From positions 62,001 to 126,000 of the forward strand of contig OW569376.1 of the NCBI GenBank assembly GCA_937625935.1: a DNA stretch of 64,000 nt, read 5' to 3'. A model generated the notes under the pieces. It was not told the origin of the DNA. It made no database searches and saw only the letters and a list, made by a program, of their open reading frames with translations. Shown here piece after piece: positions 18,439 to 54,763 of this stretch; within the stretch, counting starts at the first letter, position 1, and each line of letters starts with the position of its first letter. The translations under genes were made by a program, and so were the position numbers. The stretch is from Tetramitus jugosus. Taxonomy: Eukaryota > Protista > Heterolobosea.

Positions 18439-21400
18439 ATGCTGATGTTGCGTTACTACCTGTGTCTAGCTCTCACTTTACTGTTTCTACTTCCTCTGGC
18501 ATTCTCTATCAATGTGGACGAAATTTTTAACAACAAGAACAAAATTGTCTTTGCTCAATCGTGTGCCTTGTCGGGAGAGAGCAGTGCGCTTGGAACTGAG
18601 ATAAATACGGGCATTCAAGCAGCATTTAATGAGATCAATCGGTTAGGAGGAGTATGGGGCGATAAAACACTTGAGCTCATCGTATTGGATGATGGATATG
18701 AGACGAATAGAACTGTGAATAATACGAAAAGCTTTCTGGAGATTCCTGATTTGTTTGGAATGATAGGATTCACAGGCACTGGTAACTCTATAGCAGCGCT
18801 TGAGCTTACATCTCCATATAATCTGCCATTTATTGGACCGTTTACTGGTGCTACATCACTTCGGAGTCCATTCACTAACTATGTAGTGAACTTGAGAAGC
18901 AGTTATGATGATGAAGCAACAGCTATCCTGGAGTATTTGGTAGAAACAAAAGTAGTGACTGAAATATCGTTACTCATGCAAGATGATAGCCTCGGTATTG
19001 CAGGTCGGGATAGTTTTGAAAGAGTAATGAGTACATGTATGTGATACGGTTGATTCTGGTGATTTATTCTCCTCTTATCAGAGATCTGACACTTCATTCC
19101 TTTGCTCTTCGTGCAACTTAGTAAATCTCCAATTCAAGTCAGTCGGTAGATTCGCTAAGAATACAGTGGATGTCACTCAAGCATTGATCGACATTGCACC
19201 TGGTATGCCTCAGGCGATCGGTATGTACAATTTGAGGTTGGTATCGCCAATGAAAGTGATCTGACACCAAAATTCAGTTATGGTTGGAACATATGCTCCT
19301 TTGGCAGAGTTCGTGAAGCAAGTTAAAACTTCTCCACTCTTTCCAGAATCGAGGCAGATTCTGTTTGCTTCTCTTTCGATAGTTAGTCCAGAAATATTCG
19401 CCGATTCATTAGGAAGTGCTGAGATGAGAAGCAATGTGATTATATCGAACATTGTTCCATCACCCAGAAATCTCTCATTACCTATTGTTCATCACTACCA
19501 CAAAGCTCTTCATGAAATTCTCCCCACTGCACTTCCCACATATGGTTCCTTTGAGGGATACATTCTGGGCAAACTAACATACACAGTTATTCAGAATATT
19601 ATAGGAAACCTCACGCGCTCAAATTTCATCGATACCTTCTACTATCGATCCCTCTTTCAATTGGATCATATGTCAGTTGGTCCATACTACTGGTGCGAAC
19701 AACCTGACCCATACTTGCAAGAACCAGTGGTAGGGAATTATACGCATGAGGGCTGTTTCGATTGTAACCAAGGATTGAGAAAAGTTTGGCTAACTCAGAT
19801 CGAAACTAACGAAAACAACTCTTTTTCTTTCAAAGAAGCAAGTGATAAGTTTGAATGGACTGGATCTTGCATAGCAAGTCCGTCTGAAGTTCGAAAACCG
19901 ATTATTTTCGGGCAATCGATACTTCAACATGACGAGAGAGGTCAGTATTTAACTGCTGGTATAGAATTAGCTTTCAAGAGATATAACATGGATGTTGGTA
20001 AGAACAAACGAAACGTGAAACTAATCACATACAGTCATACAAATGCGTCTACTCTTTATGAAAATTTGTACGTTTTCCTTCGGCGGATGGAGATATTTGG
20101 TATCATTGGTTTGACTGGATCAGAGTCAGTGAGAGCTATGACACAGTATCTGGGAAGGTACCCTACAGTTCCCATTGTTGGACCTTCTATTGGTAGCTCG
20201 TTTATTTCTACTCCAGTCGTGCCTAACATTCTAAATATCCGATCGTCTTTGAGGGAGGAAGTTGGAGCGACAATCAACTACTTATCAAACAAGCTGGCTG
20301 TTACTCGATTGTCTTTTATAAATTCTGGTGAAGAGGAGAGTCAAGAAATAAGTGGCCATTATAAGACCATGCTAGATCTACTAGATATGGCGCCGGAGAG
20401 TTCTGCCGATATTGATCTAAGTTTGAATAGTGACGAGGGATTGACTATTACCCTAGAAAAACTTGTTTCTGATGGGAATAATCCACAAGCAGTTGTGTAC
20501 ACTGGAAGCTCTACAACTCAATTCAATAATATCCTCAAAATTTTGAGTCAGAGGAGATTCCAAATTGGAATTAGAGATTCAGTGATAATCATATTTAGCT
20601 CGTTAATTGATGCCTTGAGAGTTTCAAAATTTCTGAGAAACCTTGATATTGGATCCATGACCGTCCTGGCTTCCTCGGTTGTTTCAGCACCATCCGACAG
20701 ATCCAGTTCAATGGTACTTCGCTTCCTGAACCAACTTGATCGAGGATCGGAATTAAGAGACAGTTTTGCAGCTCTAGAGGGTTACTTGATTGGTGGATTT
20801 GTTACACGTGTAATTGATAGTATGGAAGTTGAGGTGACCGCTTCATCCTTCTTAAATGAAGTGTACGCGACCAGCAGTTTTACAGTCGACGATGTCGATC
20901 TAGGAAGATATATGAATACTACATCTATAGATAGATCATGCAACACAGGAATGAGGACAACTTATATGGTGCGATACAACGCCACATCATTTCGATTTGA
21001 GTCTCTTCCTAGCAGTGATATGGGCGTACTAAACTTAAGGTCAAATCAATGTGGTCTTCGAAGCAATGAAACCATGACCAATACCATTAAGAAGCCGTAC
21101 ATATTTGCGCACATTGTTCGATCCAATGATACCGATGATTATCAAAAGGGCGTTTATTCAGTGTTTTCTTCCCAGGAATCAGTCAATTTGGAAGGCATCC
21201 GAGGAAGAATGCAGATACTGAGGATCAATCACGATGCATCGAGCAATAATTCGGTTATCCCCCTCGCTAGCGAACTAGTGCACAAAAACCGAATATATGG
21301 ATTCTTGGGCACATATCCAGAGATTTCTGACGAATTGGCTGCCTTCGCAAAGGAGAGCCAGGTGCCAATATTTGGACCCTTATCGGGAAGTGTAGCCTTA

Positions 21401-23560
21401 AGAAAGCCATACAATGGGTATGTTGTCAATATGAGAGCCTCTATCTTGGATGAATTTGTAGCCATGAATCGTTATTTTAGAAGCATTGGGGTTACCAAAA
21501 TCAATCTCATGCACGAGGCTAGTTCATATTGGACTCGAGAACTTCAGAATATCTTACTGTTTGCAAAGAAAGACATCGGAGAAAAAATTGACTTTGGATT
21601 TATTGCACATTATCCTGACTCTACCAACAATTGGATTCAAAACATGGCTATGAAAGGGCCCGAAGCTCTTGTTATTCTGGCCAGTACAGACATTACATCA
21701 CAAATTTTAACGAGTGTGCCAGAATTTAAAGCGAGTAATGAGTTTCCAGTTCAGTTTGGAATATTTTCAGAGGTAGCTCAGGAACCTCTCTTCACCAATA
21801 TCCGACCGCTTCTTCCATTAATAAGAGCAATCGGGAACGGAACTAGTGTATTTGTTGGAAGAGTGTTACCAGCGTTGGCGAGCAGTTCCCCCTCTCGATC
21901 CTTATTATTCACGAACGAGACTCCATCAACTCTTTCGACTACATTTGCTTCTCTCTATAGTTCCTCTTATCCTGACTCCAATCCTACATACATGGCCTTT
22001 GAAGGATATCTCAGTGCATCGCTGATTGAGATGGTGATGAACAGTTTTGGCAAAGAAATTCCCTCAAAGGGTCTAGATTTATCCACGTTTATGGATCGCA
22101 TGTATACTTCATCAATATTTGACTTTTATGGATACATTGTTGGCCCGATAGGAAGAGAATGCCAGGCTACTAACAGTAATCAAGTATGTACGACAGCGTC
22201 TCTTGGTTGTGGATGTAATCAGGCAGCAAGAGAAGTATATCTTTCTGAGTTATCGACGATTTCAGGGGTCATTACATCTGATGTTCCGCAGGGACAGATG
22301 ACAATGTTGGGGTGCGGAACAGAACCGCGAATATCAACCAATTCGTTTCCCTATTACGGCGCTATCATTATTGCTCTTGCTCTCGTTGTGGTGATTATTG
22401 TTGCCATCTCCTTGGGTGCAATATTGTTCTTCCGTTGTAGGACTCGTGAAAGCATGAAGTATGCTCCCTCAAAGAGCGGAACTATGGTATGCTGTTTCAC
22501 AGATGTTCAAAACAGCACAAAGCTCTGGCAAATGGATGAAAAATCTATGAGACAAGCTCTTATCATTCACAACAAGATCATGAGGAGGAATCTCGAATTG
22601 TTCAGAGGATTTGAAGTGAAGACGAATGGAGACTCATTTATGGTGATGTTCAAAAGACCTAGCGATGCTATTGATTGGGCACTCGCAGTCCAACACGATC
22701 TCCTCTCCACTAAATGGTCATCCGACCTATTGGGAATGTACGACTGTAGACAGGAATGGGATGATTCAACACAACAAGTCATATGGAACGGTATTCGAGT
22801 AAGAATGGGCATTCATTCTGGCTTTGCTGAGTATCAATTTGATCCAACTACAAAAAGACCGGATTACTTTGGAACAACCATTAATACTTCTGCGAGAATT
22901 GAGGCCCTTGCCTCAGGTGGACAGGTGTTGATATCAGATGCCCTATTCAAAAAGACTAGACATCTATACAAGGAGCAGAATCTTAGGGATGATAACCCAC
23001 TCCTCTTTGCCAGTGCATTGGACTCCACCGGCAGTTTCAGCGACACTCAATCCACTTCCAGTTTTGATGGATCAACAGCTATTCACTCGAGTGAAGAGAA
23101 GCAATCAAAACGGGAGAGAAATCAGCGAGTGAAGAAGGTACGATCAGAATATTACACTGCCACAGATTTGGGTGAATTTCCACTAAAAGGGCTGTCTGGA
23201 ACAACAAGAGTGTACCAAGTAGTGAGCAATACGATACGGAACCGAAAATATCCAGAGATTATCCCAGCTGTGACAGTTACTCAAGACACTGACAGCTCCC
23301 ACTCTAGCTCAAGCACCTTGGATGTGTATTCAATCAAGAAGAACAAGGTGAAACCACTGCTAGAAACACGAAAGTCATCCTTCACCGAAGCACTACAATC
23401 TCTTAACATTATTAATAGTAGTGATCCAAATGCACAGAATGATATGATTGCTCAGAGAGAAGTGGAGGAACAACGAGATCAGGACATATCCTATGAAGCA
23501 CCCATTACGTCACCATCTCGGGACCAACTGCAAATTCATCGAATCAACCATGATGAATGA
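18439..23560 (+). CDS. Receptor-type class III adenylate cyclase with three periplasmic-binding-protein (Venus flytrap) repeats (~1659 aa); exons 18439-19036, 19122-19220, 19278-23560
   Basis: Introns 19037-19121 and 19221-19277 (GTATGT..AG) restore RFAKNTVDV..PQAIVMVGTY. Signal peptide; TM about 22350-22435; cyclase motifs FTDVQNST, EVKTNGDSFM, RVRMGIHSG, DYFGTTINTSARIE. Confidence 0.92.
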
Positions 23561-50378: not shown

Positions 50379-50548
50379 GTTACAAAAACTGTAAAATCAT
50401 GAATCTCTCATTGCCAACAAGAACTGGCAGACAACCTCACATTTAATGGATTGGATCAAGTACAGGACACTGTGACCCAACCATACATAGTTGTACATAG
50501 ACTTATTTAAGTAGTAAAATAGAATTTTCAATACAATTTTATTTTTTG

Positions 50549-52981
50549 TTACTTATTCTTCTTTGTTAGTAGCTCCATTTGTCTCATTTTCTCAATAGTG
50601 GCCCGATGTTGTTTGACCAAGAATTCAACAACACTGGTCAAGTGCAACAAACCAAACATGATCGAGCACATGAAAGTAGTCAAGAAGGCAAACAGAATCG
50701 GAGGGCAATACATTTGCGCAACGCTGTCCAAGAATGAGCCGATATCCTCAATAAGGTTGGTTCTAGTTTCGTCATCTTGAATAAAATAAGGCAACAGCTT
50801 GTTTTGTAAAATACCATGACCTTCAGACAAATTCTTGTTGTGCGCTGGATAGATATCATCATCGTCCTGAGCAGTTTGTGATCCTTCTTTGCTCAAATCG
50901 ACCCAATTGGCCCAGTCAATACTTATATTAGCTGGTTTAGCTGTTGGAGATCGAATCAATCTGGGCCATTCCTCATTCTTTGCCTTCATGATGGAGATTG
51001 TTGTTCTTCCGGCACCTGGCGTGATCGTGTAGTCTAATGGATCTACTTGTCCGTACAGTTCAATGTTCAACAGATACGAGTTACCGTTGCTCGACACAGC
51101 CTTGAACAAGAGCTGATGATCACTTGTCACAAACAACTCTGTCTTCTCCAAATTTGGTAGCTCAATAGTAAAGGTTAGTTTGTCAATACGTTGACACCAT
51201 TTGATAGGTGCAACCAAGTGGTCCTCGGTACCCGCCAAAAACTTGTCCACTCTCGCCTTATCCAACTCCTTCTCTGCCACAGTCTCTGGTTTTATGAGCG
51301 CTCTTCTCTTGTAGCAATACACCTTTGGTTGCTTGAGTACTTTGAGTGCTTTGAAATCAACACCACTGTACCCTTCTTGAGTATCAATGACGGCAAATAC
51401 CTTATTGAATCGCTTGTCAACCTCGTCCATGGCTTCTGGATTGTTGCCACTGAGGACATGAGAGAATGTACGATAGTTCACATTCTTTTCCTGCTTGGAA
51501 TATTTCCAGGTTGAATTGAACTGCAAAAAGCGTGTGACACCATTCATTGTCACATGGCTATCCATGTGCACATACTTTGGTTGATGATTGTCCTTCTCTC
51601 GATTATACAACTTGTTGAGTGCATCTGCTCCATAGTAGTTGGATGAACTGGCATAGAGGAAGAACAAGGAGATAATAAGTGATCCCAACAGCACAAGTGG
51701 TATCAAGTATGATACGAGCTTTGATCTTCTCTTCAATTGCACAATGCCTACTGCAGCAGTCAGATTGAAGAGTGGCAGGGCAAAGAATATGAATCGAAGT
51801 TCCTTGTGAGGCAGCATGGAATACAGTGCAACAAATAGTACTGCACTAATAAAATATGGCAATACGCTTTGCTTTCGATATCGATGGAAAATTATGCCGA
51901 ATGGGATGAAAACAAGCGCACCCAACAATGATCTTGGCAGTGCCGATGTAAAGTACCAATGTGGAGAATAAACACCCCATTCATGACTCTTGTTCATCAC
52001 TGTATTGTAATAGAGTACTTCACCTTCGGGCCAAACCATTCGTTGCCAAAAGTACGTATCAACAATAAATGAAACAAAGATACCGAATGACACGGATGTC
52101 AATCCAACAGCAACACCAGAGATCAATCCTACTCTTCTCGTCAACAAACAAACAACAGCAATAGGAGCGATAAACACGAGTAGATCAGAGCGAAAAATTG
52201 CAGCAGCGACACCCAATACAGCAAACATGTGCACATATTGATCACGCAACCAATATCCCAACCCAACAAAGGCAAAAATCAGAGCAAACACATTGGGTAA
52301 TGGTCTTCCCATGTAAAACATTAAATGGAATTGACACATGACCAACAGTGCATACCAAATCGACACGTGATACCCAGTGTGTTGAGTTCCATCCTCCTCA
52401 TTCTCATCAGCACCCACATGACCACTCTTTTGCTTCCTTGTGACTTGTTTCACCTTGTTCATTACTTGATCAATGTCATCATCAGCAGCACCAGTAATCT
52501 CTTGACTAAACTTGATTGTAATACCACTGCGAAAGAATCCTTGAGCACAAATGGAAAAGACACCCAGAATGAATCGCACCAGAATCAAACTCAAGAATTT
52601 TACACTTGCTTCGTTGGCAACAATCCACTGAAGCAATTTAACAAACGGAGCAGCAATAATCGACACAAAAATCGATCCAATAAACGTTCTAGGAACAACA
52701 CCAGGGAACTCAAAGTGATCAAATCGATCCAATCTTGTCATGTGAAACAACAAGTCATGCATGGCCTGAGTATTGAAGCTCTCTTCCACTTTTGTGTAGG
52801 GAACAATGAAAATGTACACTGTGAGCTGTATGAGCATGAATACGTCCAAAAAATCAATTTGAGGCATCATGAGCAAGCGAACTTGTCGCCACAGCATTTG
52901 TTGAACTTGTTTTTGACGTTCTTCTTGCTGTTTGGGTTGATCAACAGCAGAAGGAGGACTGGTCGTGGAGGTTTCCGTCAT
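50549..52981 (-). CDS. ALG12: ALG12 alpha-1,6-mannosyltransferase (GT22) fused to a p23/CS domain, TM helix and KKxx
   Basis: PYTKVEESFNTQAMHD, DHFEFPGVVPRTFIG, QFHLMFYMGRPLPN, WPEGEVLYYN, LPHKELRF, GVTRFLQ; then IKWCQR..WPRL..IDWANWVD. Confidence 0.92.
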   Translation of the reverse strand: MTETSTTSPPSAVDQPKQQEERQKQVQQMLWRQVRLLMMPQIDFLDVFMLIQLTVYIFIVPYTKVEESFNTQAMHDLLFHMTRLDRFDHFEFPGVVPRTFIGSIFVSIIAAPFVKLLQWIVANEASVKFLSLILVRFILGVFSICAQGFFRSGITIKFSQEITGAADDDIDQVMNKVKQVTRKQKSGHVGADENEEDGTQHTGYHVSIWYALLVMCQFHLMFYMGRPLPNVFALIFAFVGLGYWLRDQYVHMFAVLGVAAAIFRSDLLVFIAPIAVVCLLTRRVGLISGVAVGLTSVSFGIFVSFIVDTYFWQRMVWPEGEVLYYNTVMNKSHEWGVYSPHWYFTSALPRSLLGALVFIPFGIIFHRYRKQSVLPYFISAVLFVALYSMLPHKELRFIFFALPLFNLTAAVGIVQLKRRSKLVSYLIPLVLLGSLIISLFFLYASSSNYYGADALNKLYNREKDNHQPKYVHMDSHVTMNGVTRFLQFNSTWKYSKQEKNVNYRTFSHVLSGNNPEAMDEVDKRFNKVFAVIDTQEGYSGVDFKALKVLKQPKVYCYKRRALIKPETVAEKELDKARVDKFLAGTEDHLVAPIKWCQRIDKLTFTIELPNLEKTELFVTSDHQLLFKAVSSNGNSYLLNIELYGQVDPLDYTITPGAGRTTISIMKAKNEEWPRLIRSPTAKPANISIDWANWVDLSKEGSQTAQDDDDIYPAHNKNLSEGHGILQNKLLPYFIQDDETRTNLIEDIGSFLDSVAQMYCPPILFAFLTTFMCSIMFGLLHLTSVVEFLVKQHRATIEKMRQMELLTKKNK

Positions 52982-53140
52982 GTCTTATCAGCTTTCTCAA
53001 CGTGCTGTTTCAATTTTGTTGTTTTGTTTCTCATCAAGTCAAGACTGATCGGAAAAGGTGATCATCGGACTATTCACTGAATTTCTGCGCCTCCGAAAAA
53101 CAAAATTTCACAAACAAAAATACCGCGAACACGACAAAAA

Positions 53141-54763
53141 ATGAATCGATTGGTCATGTGGAGTGCACGTCGATCATTGAACAACAACAATTGTCGTTCA
53201 TTGGTCATGAATGGACGCAACAACAATAGAATCCATCACCACCTTCATTGCCAACCTCAATCCCTGCTTCATTTCTTCCACACTACAATTCCCGCCAAAA
53301 ATCACCCGATGGCTGCATCTACGGCGGCGGCGGCAGCGCAAGAAACACAAAAATCACAACAAGGACAATCAACGTCTGACAACAACAAGGAAAATGAACA
53401 AGAAAAAAAACAAAAGGAACAAGCTGAAAAACAACAAAAGAAACAAAGGAGAAGAAGACGTGCTGCAAAGCTATTGCTTTTCCTCGCTGGTTCCTATGTT
53501 GTCATCAAGACTTTTGCCTATATTGTTCTCATCTCTGAAGACAATGCCTTTGTCATGAACAACTCTGCTGAATCTCTCATGAAAAAGCTTCCATTGAATG
53601 CTCTGTCCAGAACATGGGGTTGGATCTATTCAACTGAAGTTCCAGAAGTCCTTAGACCACTGTTTTATCAAATTTATGCATGGTTGTTTGATGCCAATTT
53701 GGATGATGTGGAATTGCCATTGAAACGATACAAGAGTCTTCAAGATTTCTTTACTAGAAGGCTCAAGAAAGATGCTAGAGTAGTGGATGAAAAGAGTGAG
53801 ATTGTGAGTCCAGTGGACGGAAGAGTCATGTCATGTGGTGTCGTTCATATTAACAAGGACTCTGAAACAGTTGTGGTGGAGCAAGTTAAGGGCATTACCT
53901 ATCCATTGCATCATTTCTTGGGTTATGGAATGAAGGATGCCATGTTGGCATTGAGTACAGCTGCTACTGATGTGGTCAAGGATGAGAAGAGTGAGGAAGC
54001 AAATTCATCATCTCCACCTTCTGAGCACAGTTATTTTTTGAGTGATGAGAAACATGAGAAGACGTTGCATTATTGTGTCCTGTATTTGGCACCTGGTGAT
54101 TATCACAGATTTCACTCTCCATGTGATTGGAAAGTGGAGGAGAGAAAGCATGTGGCAGGTTATTTGTTCCCTGTGATGCCATTGTTTGTGAAAACATTGA
54201 GAGGTTTGTTTGCTCTGAATGAACGTGTAGTGTTGCATGGCAAGTGGAATCATGGTGATTTTCATTATGTTTTGGTCGGTGCGACCAATGTTGGTGGAAT
54301 GACACTGTACTTTGACAATACGCTCAACACGAATCTGAAGAGAAAGAAGGAACCGAAAAAGAAGGCTTCCACACAAAAGAAGGACCAGAAGAAGACTGAA
54401 GCGAAATCTGAGACTGCAGAACAAGAGAAAACAACCGAAGAAGCTGCACATGAAATTACTGTAGTTTCCACTGCACCTTCTGGAGAAGTCGTTACGCAAA
54501 CAAAGGAAGAGATTGGAACAAAGAACAACCAACACGCTTTTGACCAATATTTGCAAATGAGAAGACGGGAGTACGCAAGAGGAGGAATTTCACTGTCGAA
54601 AGGAGAAGACATTGGATATTTCAGGATGGGAAGTACAGTTGTCATGTTATTCGAGCACTCTGATGCAAAGTTCGAGTGGGGCATAAAACCAGGTGAGAGA
54701 GTGCTCTTGGGTGAGCCTCTATCAGCGGACAGACGGAGCGAGTTCCTAACTCAAAGAAAGTAA
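53141..54763 (+). CDS. PISD: Phosphatidylserine decarboxylase proenzyme (PSD1/PISD type)
   Basis: LPLNALSRTWG, FFTRRLK, SPVDG, EQVKGITY, YLAPGDYHRFHSP, NERVVL, VGATNVG and autocleavage motif FRMGSTVV; presequence-like N-terminus and TM. Confidence 0.95.
   Translation: MNRLVMWSARRSLNNNNCRSLVMNGRNNNRIHHHLHCQPQSLLHFFHTTIPAKNHPMAASTAAAAAQETQKSQQGQSTSDNNKENEQEKKQKEQAEKQQKKQRRRRRAAKLLLFLAGSYVVIKTFAYIVLISEDNAFVMNNSAESLMKKLPLNALSRTWGWIYSTEVPEVLRPLFYQIYAWLFDANLDDVELPLKRYKSLQDFFTRRLKKDARVVDEKSEIVSPVDGRVMSCGVVHINKDSETVVVEQVKGITYPLHHFLGYGMKDAMLALSTAATDVVKDEKSEEANSSSPPSEHSYFLSDEKHEKTLHYCVLYLAPGDYHRFHSPCDWKVEERKHVAGYLFPVMPLFVKTLRGLFALNERVVLHGKWNHGDFHYVLVGATNVGGMTLYFDNTLNTNLKRKKEPKKKASTQKKDQKKTEAKSETAEQEKTTEEAAHEITVVSTAPSGEVVTQTKEEIGTKNNQHAFDQYLQMRRREYARGGISLSKGEDIGYFRMGSTVVMLFEHSDAKFEWGIKPGERVLLGEPLSADRRSEFLTQRK

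Follow-up and report, generated by a model that had tools for sequence, protein, structure and literature searches.

A p23-type CS domain joined to the C-terminus of the mannosyltransferase ALG12 in Tetramitus jugosus and other Heterolobosea

We analysed a 64-kb stretch of Tetramitus jugosus DNA (hereafter the window), which is intron-poor and has a G+C content of ~41%, and describe here a gene in which the mannosyltransferase ALG12 continues into a p23-type CS domain. A single frame of 810 codons on the minus strand runs from an ATG at 52981 to a TAA at 50549-50551 without an internal stop. The features of the gene are as follows.

50549..52981, minus strand: whole open reading frame (ORF), 810 residues, encoding ALG12, p23-type CS domain, helical stalk, membrane helix and KKNK (frame and spanning RNA contigs)
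51644..52861, minus strand: membrane core of ALG12, residues 41-446, with a GT-C fold and, going by the chicken structure, an expected 11 helices (Pfam, PDB search, residue mapping, model)
51299..51643, minus strand: ALG12 C-terminal lumenal domain, residues 447-561, with sequon N489 (model against 9s6t_A; PMC13503287)
51221..51298, minus strand: hydrophilic linker, residues 562-587, with a predicted helix at 568-582 and no membrane segment (hydropathy, model)
50879..51220, minus strand: p23-type CS domain, residues 588-701 (Pfam, PDB search, fold comparison)
50903..50917, minus strand: D689-W690-x-x-W693, aligned with yeast p23 F121/W124 (human F103/W106) (alignment, accessible part of PMC7864943, conservation)
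50708..50878, minus strand: acidic stretch, GHG motif and two predicted helices, residues 702-758 (model, orthologue alignment)
~50615..50704, minus strand: predicted extra (twelfth) membrane helix, residues 760-789, in a hydrophobic segment at 757-789 (hydropathy)
50549..50614, minus strand: short, putatively cytosolic tail with KKNK-stop (KKxx), KKNK at 50563-50552 (sequence, orthologues)

Only two Pfam families are matched in the ORF. Glyco_transf_22 (PF03901) covers residues 49-472 (E 1.1e-47; 163.6 bits against a cut-off of 23.8), and CS (PF04969) lies C-terminal to it at 593-657, with an E-value of 0.003 in the whole protein, below the curated cut-off; residues 584-703 submitted alone reach 23.2 bits, above the cut-off of 21.3. 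The sequence motifs, hydrophobic helix and KKNK end described in the original prediction, which had been made from the DNA letters, were all found at their predicted positions: APIKWCQR starts at residue 591 (51211), SIDWANWVD extends to residue 695 (50897) and DDDD occupies residues 706-709. The same prediction had taken the locus for one gene uninterrupted by a stop or intron, and this is borne out by the frame and by the sequencing runs. Part of the window is present in 20 of the 22 runs listed, and eight runs were compared in detail. In all four runs recorded as RNA, one jointless contig bridges the ALG12-CS junction (X7, 50637-52982; X8, 50637-52976; X9, 50546-52982; X17, oligo-dT, 50540-52027), and no separate RNA piece of the CS-encoding 3' part was found among the contigs. 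X7, X8 and X17 have zero depth across two intergenic bins (50401-50501 and 53027-53127) that X2, guessed to be of DNA type, does cover, and X9 has the neighbouring kinase on a contig of its own. X13, guessed to be RNA, is fragmented, and one of its pieces (51147-51557) spans the junction. An assembly join, a hidden intron and two separate genes were each considered and rejected on account of the jointless contigs of X7, X8, X9 and X17. Overall, contig support for a single transcript across the junction is good but not final, as the contigs carry no strand or transcript-end information and X7-X9 possibly belong to one campaign.

The ALG12 gene has a head-to-head neighbour, a gene for phosphatidylserine decarboxylase (PF02666; 53141-54763, plus strand); ~160 bases separate the first ATGs of the two, which may share a promoter. 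At positions 54421, 54422 and 54424 of the decarboxylase gene, four of the runs compared differ from the window, including one that otherwise matches it, and a consensus error in the window letters at 54421-54424 is possible.

For the enzyme half, a PDB sequence search matched chicken ALG12 (E 6e-80). An AlphaFold2 model of the whole chain, computed from 60 aligned sequences, has a predicted local distance difference test score (pLDDT) of 90.2 and a predicted template modelling score (pTM) of 0.89, with residues 570-700 at 93-96. Residues 41-561 of the model superimpose on residues 10-487 of chicken ALG12 (9s6t_A) with Z 42.5, a root-mean-square deviation (rmsd) of 2.3 Å and 35% identity, 463 of 479 residues being aligned, including the 11-helix core and the C-terminal domain; with Z 24.0 against human ALG9, this half is nearer ALG12 than ALG9. 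According to the accessible part of PMC13503287, chicken ALG12 consists of 7+4 membrane helices followed by a lumenal C-terminal domain, and eight of its residues are named as catalytic or substrate-binding (E35, R67, H140, R185, W256, R271, R312 and N370). All eight, mapped through the alignment, are retained in the T. jugosus protein (E66, R98, H219, R264, W335, R350, R396 and N448), and the ALG12 half therefore looks like an active mannosyltransferase. ALG12 helps to build the sugar tree of glycoproteins by transferring α-1,6-mannose from Dol-P-Man to Man7GlcNAc2-PP-Dol. Most ALG12 matches have the canonical end ~170-200 residues past the HKELR motif, whereas the fusion form extends for 327-447 residues. 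A charged, partly helical insert of ~40 residues occupies a core loop at residues ~160-200 (52380-52500, minus strand); it is shorter in P0002 and P0003, is missing from Willaertia and varies among strains by in-frame 3-base indels.

The second half is related to p23, which is a cytosolic protein. A PDB sequence search matched Arabidopsis p23 At3g03773 (E 4e-14) and human p23 (E 0.003-0.02), and the predicted model matches human p23 with a TM-score of 0.90 of the target (E 9e-7). Superposition of residues 588-701 on residues 1-112 of human p23 (7krj_C) gives Z 17.8 and rmsd 1.4 Å and includes the C-terminal extension; the CS domain of Sgt1 aligns to residues 589-679 only (Z 12.5). Fold and motifs thus uphold the p23-type assignment made in the original prediction, which had read the signatures as those of p23 and also of HACD3; the domain layout of HACD3 is not present, the ORF having no PTPLA match. 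We refer to a p23-like domain and not to a p23 protein because it is part of an 810-residue membrane protein encoded in one transcript-length contig.

Relatives were searched for the PF03901 plus PF04969 architecture, as had been suggested, and 14 further proteins combining ALG12 (or its lumenal end), a CS domain and a membrane helix were found, 15 including that of T. jugosus. Carriers include Willaertia magna, Acrasis kona, Naegleria lovaniensis, N. fowleri and Percolomonas. Ten of the C-terminal fusions were included in an ALG12 tree of 40 selected rows, where they form one clade, with a Shimodaira-Hasegawa-like approximate likelihood ratio (SH-aLRT) support of 99, and the closest kin of the T. 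jugosus protein are three of the other database proteins in that clade. A metagenome scan with the window tail alone gave no match, and a scan with the alignment found 66 loci, of which 2 have the fusion and 64 match only in the CS part; in the intron-bearing metagenome loci L001 and L002 the ALG12-CS junction lies inside one exon. A search of the ESM Atlas with the C-terminal tail returned CS clusters, all leads <0.9. As judged from sequence, the C-terminal fusion is lineage-wide among the heterolobosean proteins found. That it is unannotated may be explained by the public N. gruberi model (P0162, 417 residues), which is partial and ends inside the lumenal domain, and by Pfam, which misses the CS domain in P0002-P0005 and in most fusion proteins. 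N. gruberi is listed with ALG12 in PMC4973528, the accessible part of which does not mention the fusion.

Extensions after the ALG12 lumenal domain, here with no membrane helix, are also present in the jakobids Andalucia godoyi (P0169, residues 540-669) and Stygiella incarcerata (P0176, residues 506-629). Their match to the p23 profile is weak (E 4e-6 and 9e-4; of the six tails compared, the four controls gave 0.1-1.2). The Andalucia tail is modelled, at low confidence (pLDDT 56-70), as an HSP20-like β-sandwich (Z 7.3), and a Foldseek search with this model gave no p23 among the best 50 rows, but only USP19 CS2 at E 0.37. The jakobid extensions are probably a decayed version of the C-terminal fusion, in which case the fusion would date to early Discoba.

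Dilysine signals of the KKxx type act as retrieval signals on cytosolic tails. A dilysine end (KKxx or KxKxx) is found in 13 of the 15 orthologues as against 5 of 107 other ALG12 matches, the exceptions being P0161, which ends in RIKIE, and P0170, which ends within the helix. From the ALG12 lumenal domain up to the CS domain, peak 19-mer hydropathy is ≤0.74 in every orthologue, and C-terminal to the CS domain it is 1.6-2.64, with a Kyte-Doolittle peak of 2.07 for the extra-helix segment of T. jugosus. The linker helix at 568-582 is missing in Naegleria and Willaertia. As no hydrophobic segment precedes the CS domain and a helix and dilysine tail follow it, the domain likely lies in the endoplasmic reticulum (ER) lumen, and the KKxx tail would be cytosolic, keeping the protein in the ER. 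Both proposals, already put forward in the original prediction, are thus supported by the hydropathy of the 15 orthologues and by the chicken ALG12 structure as described in the accessible part of PMC13503287.

A second kind of fusion, with the CS domain at the N-terminus of ALG12, emerged from the same searches. Among 189 ALG12-family matches, the CS domain is N-terminal in 30, C-terminal in 17 (the 15 orthologues, one protein clustered with P0170 and, with a weak match, Stygiella) and absent from 142; these numbers are not frequencies, the searches having been seeded with fusions and covering the best 120 of 3182 and the best 120 of 2407 matches. The N-terminal form occurs in amoebozoans, haptophytes and cryptists, including Ceratiomyxa, Pelomyxa, Mastigella, Prymnesium and Palpitomonas (P0164, P0165, P0177, P0286, P0293 and 25 more matches). 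Neither a signal nor a membrane segment precedes its CS domain, nor does a membrane segment separate the domain from helix 1, so that this CS domain would be on the cytosolic side. Several N-terminal-form proteins end in KDEL-like words (HDL, RDL, EEL, GDL), consistent with a lumenal ALG12 C-terminus. Their CS domains have a signature of their own (W-x-S/T-L-Q, P-K and E-x-x-D-F/W-D; Q676 in 23 of 26 and E686 in 25 of 26), with the second Trp mostly missing. In quick CS-tree searches over ~124 columns, the C-terminal and N-terminal sets each form one clade, with SH-aLRT 86 and 91 in the 83-row tree (15 of 15 C-terminal, 17 of 26 N-terminal and 51 of 146 other domains) and 96 and 99 in the 40-row tree (8, 8 and 24); the two sets stand apart in the former and together, at a support of 22, in the latter. 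No HACD3 was recognised among the matches, 24 of which were scanned with Pfam, or among the metagenome loci, and none is known to be in these trees. The ALG12 halves of the N-terminal form are scattered among unfused ALG12s, and this, with their CS domains in one clade, is consistent with an ancient fusion that was repeatedly lost, horizontal transfer being a possible alternative. A relic of the first ALG12 helix, as would be left in the tail by circular permutation of a tandem CS-ALG12 pair, was sought with hhalign and gave no match (probability 0.4% and 0.3%), a result that is compatible with an old permutation.

The two forms differ in the residues through which p23 contacts Hsp90. In yeast p23, according to the accessible part of PMC7864943, F121 is required for Hsp90 binding and W124 for full ATPase inhibition, and acids adjoining W124 may touch Hsp90 lysines. 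Of the equivalent positions in the 15 C-terminal-form orthologues, W690 is kept in all, W693 in 12, an acid at 695 in 14 and R/K at 674 in 14; among 146 other p23-like domains, position 690 is W in 126 and F in 18, 693 is W in 125, 695 is D in 133 and E in 7, and 674 is R in 117 and K in 14. In the N-terminal form, the core residues W595, W672, L675 and D689 are each present in 26 of 26 domains, whereas the D-aromatic-x-x-W/F motif is found in 4 of 26, W693 is mostly lost and R674 is replaced (T in 12, S in 11). Since these core residues stay while W693 and R674 are mostly replaced, the latter two are not required for the fold alone. By alignment, then, of both fusion forms only the lumenal one retains the full Hsp90-binding motif of p23.

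We propose, with a rough probability of 45%, that the lumenal CS domain serves Grp94 as a co-chaperone tethered to the membrane. The domain would be pinned in the ER lumen between the ALG12 lumenal domain and the predicted twelfth helix, and the KKxx tail would retain the ALG12-p23 protein in the ER. When Grp94 is closed with ATP bound, W690, W693 and the acids that follow would dock into the pocket of its middle domain, as those of p23 do on cytosolic Hsp90. The docked domain would slow the Grp94 cycle at those places on the membrane in which N-glycan precursors are completed and new glycoproteins emerge. This reading is favoured because the lumenal form keeps the Hsp90-contact residues, because a further candidate has been found, and because Grp94 is the Hsp90 of the ER and has, according to the accessible part of PMC10962938, no known general co-chaperone. 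The further candidate is P0128 (682 residues), in which a predicted signal peptide is followed by a p23-type CS domain with DWxxW (68-143) and a four-domain protein disulphide isomerase (PDI); it may represent a second, independent lumenal p23 domain, in a single record that could be a chimera, and an ESM Atlas search with it returned plain PDI clusters, all leads <0.9.

Several observations weigh against this proposal. W693 is missing in three of the 15 orthologues (P0158, P0159 and P0161), and DWxxW is missing altogether from the jakobid tails. Part of the conservation of W690 and W693 may be structural, since both aromatics also touch the core domain in free yeast p23 (PMC7864943, accessible part). 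The window allele itself alters three residues around the motif, with N685, S687 and A691 (50910, 50923, 50928-50929) where other strains, matching the orthologues, have Y or F, R and D, and two of the changes together form an N-I-S sequon just ahead of the Hsp90-binding motif. Sequencing error at these positions was rejected, as run X1 carries the window letters and X6 both alleles; X1 is possibly the source of the window and hence not independent support. An excess of sequons, considered as a marker of lumenal location, was dropped as not significant (17 in the CS domains against 11.5 shuffled, P 0.07). Most ALG12-family matches (142 of 189, from searches seeded with fusions) do without a CS domain, so it is dispensable for catalysis. 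Furthermore, the pTM of the single-chain model suggests that the CS domain lies fixed against the remainder of the chain, which may limit access of a Grp94 dimer, and the Hsp90-interface evidence comes from the CS side.

It is nearly as likely that the lumenal CS domain serves ALG12 independently of Hsp90, by stabilising the enzyme through its lumenal domain and stalk, by binding neighbours in the precursor pathway or by holding unfolded chains in the manner of small heat-shock proteins. The confident whole-chain model suggests a rigid unit, the stalk GHG motif (721-723; 50813-50821) is retained in 11 of the 15 orthologues, the jakobid tails keep a weak p23-profile match and, in the Andalucia model, an HSP20-like sandwich without the Hsp90 motif, and the presence of a CS domain on either end of ALG12 in different supergroups suggests a benefit independent of compartment. 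Such a role leaves unexplained, however, why the lumenal form keeps the Hsp90-contact residues of p23 when the N-terminal form replaced them; moreover, chicken ALG12 needs no such domain to bind its two substrates (PMC13503287, accessible part).

We consider it unlikely that the domain is a passenger, that is, an old fusion fixed by drift in which the CS domain is kept merely so that the downstream anchor and retrieval signal work. CS-domain identity to the T. jugosus protein is indeed below that of the membrane core (for instance, 30-36% versus 48-56% for Naegleria, Willaertia and Acrasis), five of the nine strain differences listed within residues 588-697 change a residue (best-supported rows), and the domain has apparently decayed in jakobids. 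Yet CS identity is only somewhat lower than that of the ALG12 lumenal domain, and seven CS residues (W595, Q597, Y636, K666, W672, L675 and W690) do not vary among the 15 orthologues, which span deep heterolobosean branches. Moreover, anchor and signal could outlast a deletion of the CS domain, and none of the ALG12-family matches shows one. A different topology or a shorter product, by which the CS domain would act on Hsp90 in the cytosol like HACD3 or the N-terminal fusions, is very improbable: the motif suits cytosolic Hsp90, the known partner of p23, in the other CS-ALG12 fusion the CS domain is N-terminal and hence cytosolic, given 11 helices and a lumenal C-terminus, and the lumenal topology is derived from hydropathy and homology, but all 15 orthologues are free of a hydrophobic segment between lumenal domain and CS domain, the helix and dilysine tail after the domain make sense only if it is lumenal, the RNA contigs include no separate 3' piece, and a single exon holds the junction even at L001 and L002, which have introns.

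The architecture is a transcribed, lineage-wide and new one of a known enzyme, ALG12. Neither the C-terminal nor the N-terminal CS-ALG12 fusion was found described in the literature covered, which excluded most subscription papers, and the architecture might be listed in domain tables that accompany the genome papers on Naegleria, Willaertia or Acrasis; the ALG12-p23 fusion is apparently unpublished. Of the earlier statement that no such fusion is known, the part concerning publication therefore stands, but the fusion is not a one-off, being lineage-wide, present in decayed form in two jakobids and mirrored by the N-terminal form elsewhere, and this breadth and mirroring make it more credible. 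Tentatively, we extend the Grp94 proposal to suggest that Heterolobosea may have moved a working p23 into the lumen by way of ALG12, giving Grp94 a general closure-stabilising co-chaperone, and that the p23 domains on both faces of the ER may reflect an old coupling of ALG12 with Hsp90. If so, this would be a co-chaperone of a kind not found in animals, tied to the place where N-glycan precursors are assembled, and it would reveal an old, unrecognised coupling of oligomannose C-branch synthesis with Hsp90-family chaperones. A natural, likely lumenal p23 domain with intact Hsp90-contact residues, kept over a whole deep lineage, makes Hsp90-like regulation of Grp94 directly testable. Even if the Grp94 idea fails, the repeated occurrence, in Discoba, Amoebozoa, haptophytes and cryptists, of a p23-type domain on an enzyme central to glycosylation represents unannotated ER biology of early eukaryotes.

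Elsewhere in the window, at 18439-23560 on the plus strand, two adjacent ORFs of 201 and 1426 residues look by eye like a single nucleotide cyclase of the receptor type that carries several periplasmic-binding-like repeats and is probably interrupted by an intron.

Compared with canonical ALG12 (CAZy GT22, PF03901; chicken, PDB 9s6t), the T. jugosus protein has the same fold over residues 41-561 and the same eight residues, but whereas the canonical enzyme terminates in the lumen, 250 residues are added here, comprising the p23 domain, stalk, membrane helix and dilysine tail. With p23/Sba1/PTGES3 (PF04969; PDB 1ejf, 7krj_C, 2cg9_X and 2kmw) it shares the fold (Z 17.7-17.8, rmsd 1.2-1.4 Å) and the motifs W-x-Q-R, W-x-R-L and D-W-x-x-W-x-acid. 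p23, however, is a free protein with a disordered tail (the tail as described in the accessible part of PMC7864943), whereas this CS domain is attached at both ends to membrane helices and has a helical stalk instead. HACD3 (PTPLAD1, B-ind1) and USP19, listed in the accessible part of PMC8694271 as ER membrane proteins among the CS-domain co-chaperones of Hsp90, likewise join a CS domain to an ER membrane enzyme. Their enzyme is different from ALG12, and the HACD3 order, CS followed by the PTPLA dehydratase, is not present in the T. jugosus protein according to Pfam. In both, the CS domains are cytosolic and N-terminal to the enzyme, a layout that resembles the N-terminal CS-ALG12 fusions and not the gene described here. 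To our knowledge, Grp94 co-chaperones of the CNPY3 type are unrelated to the CS family. They are client-specific, and the accessible parts of PMC10962938 and PMC12610889 present none of them as a homologue of p23 or as belonging to a glycosyltransferase; both they and the ALG12-linked CS domain would nevertheless act on the same chaperone, lumenal Grp94.

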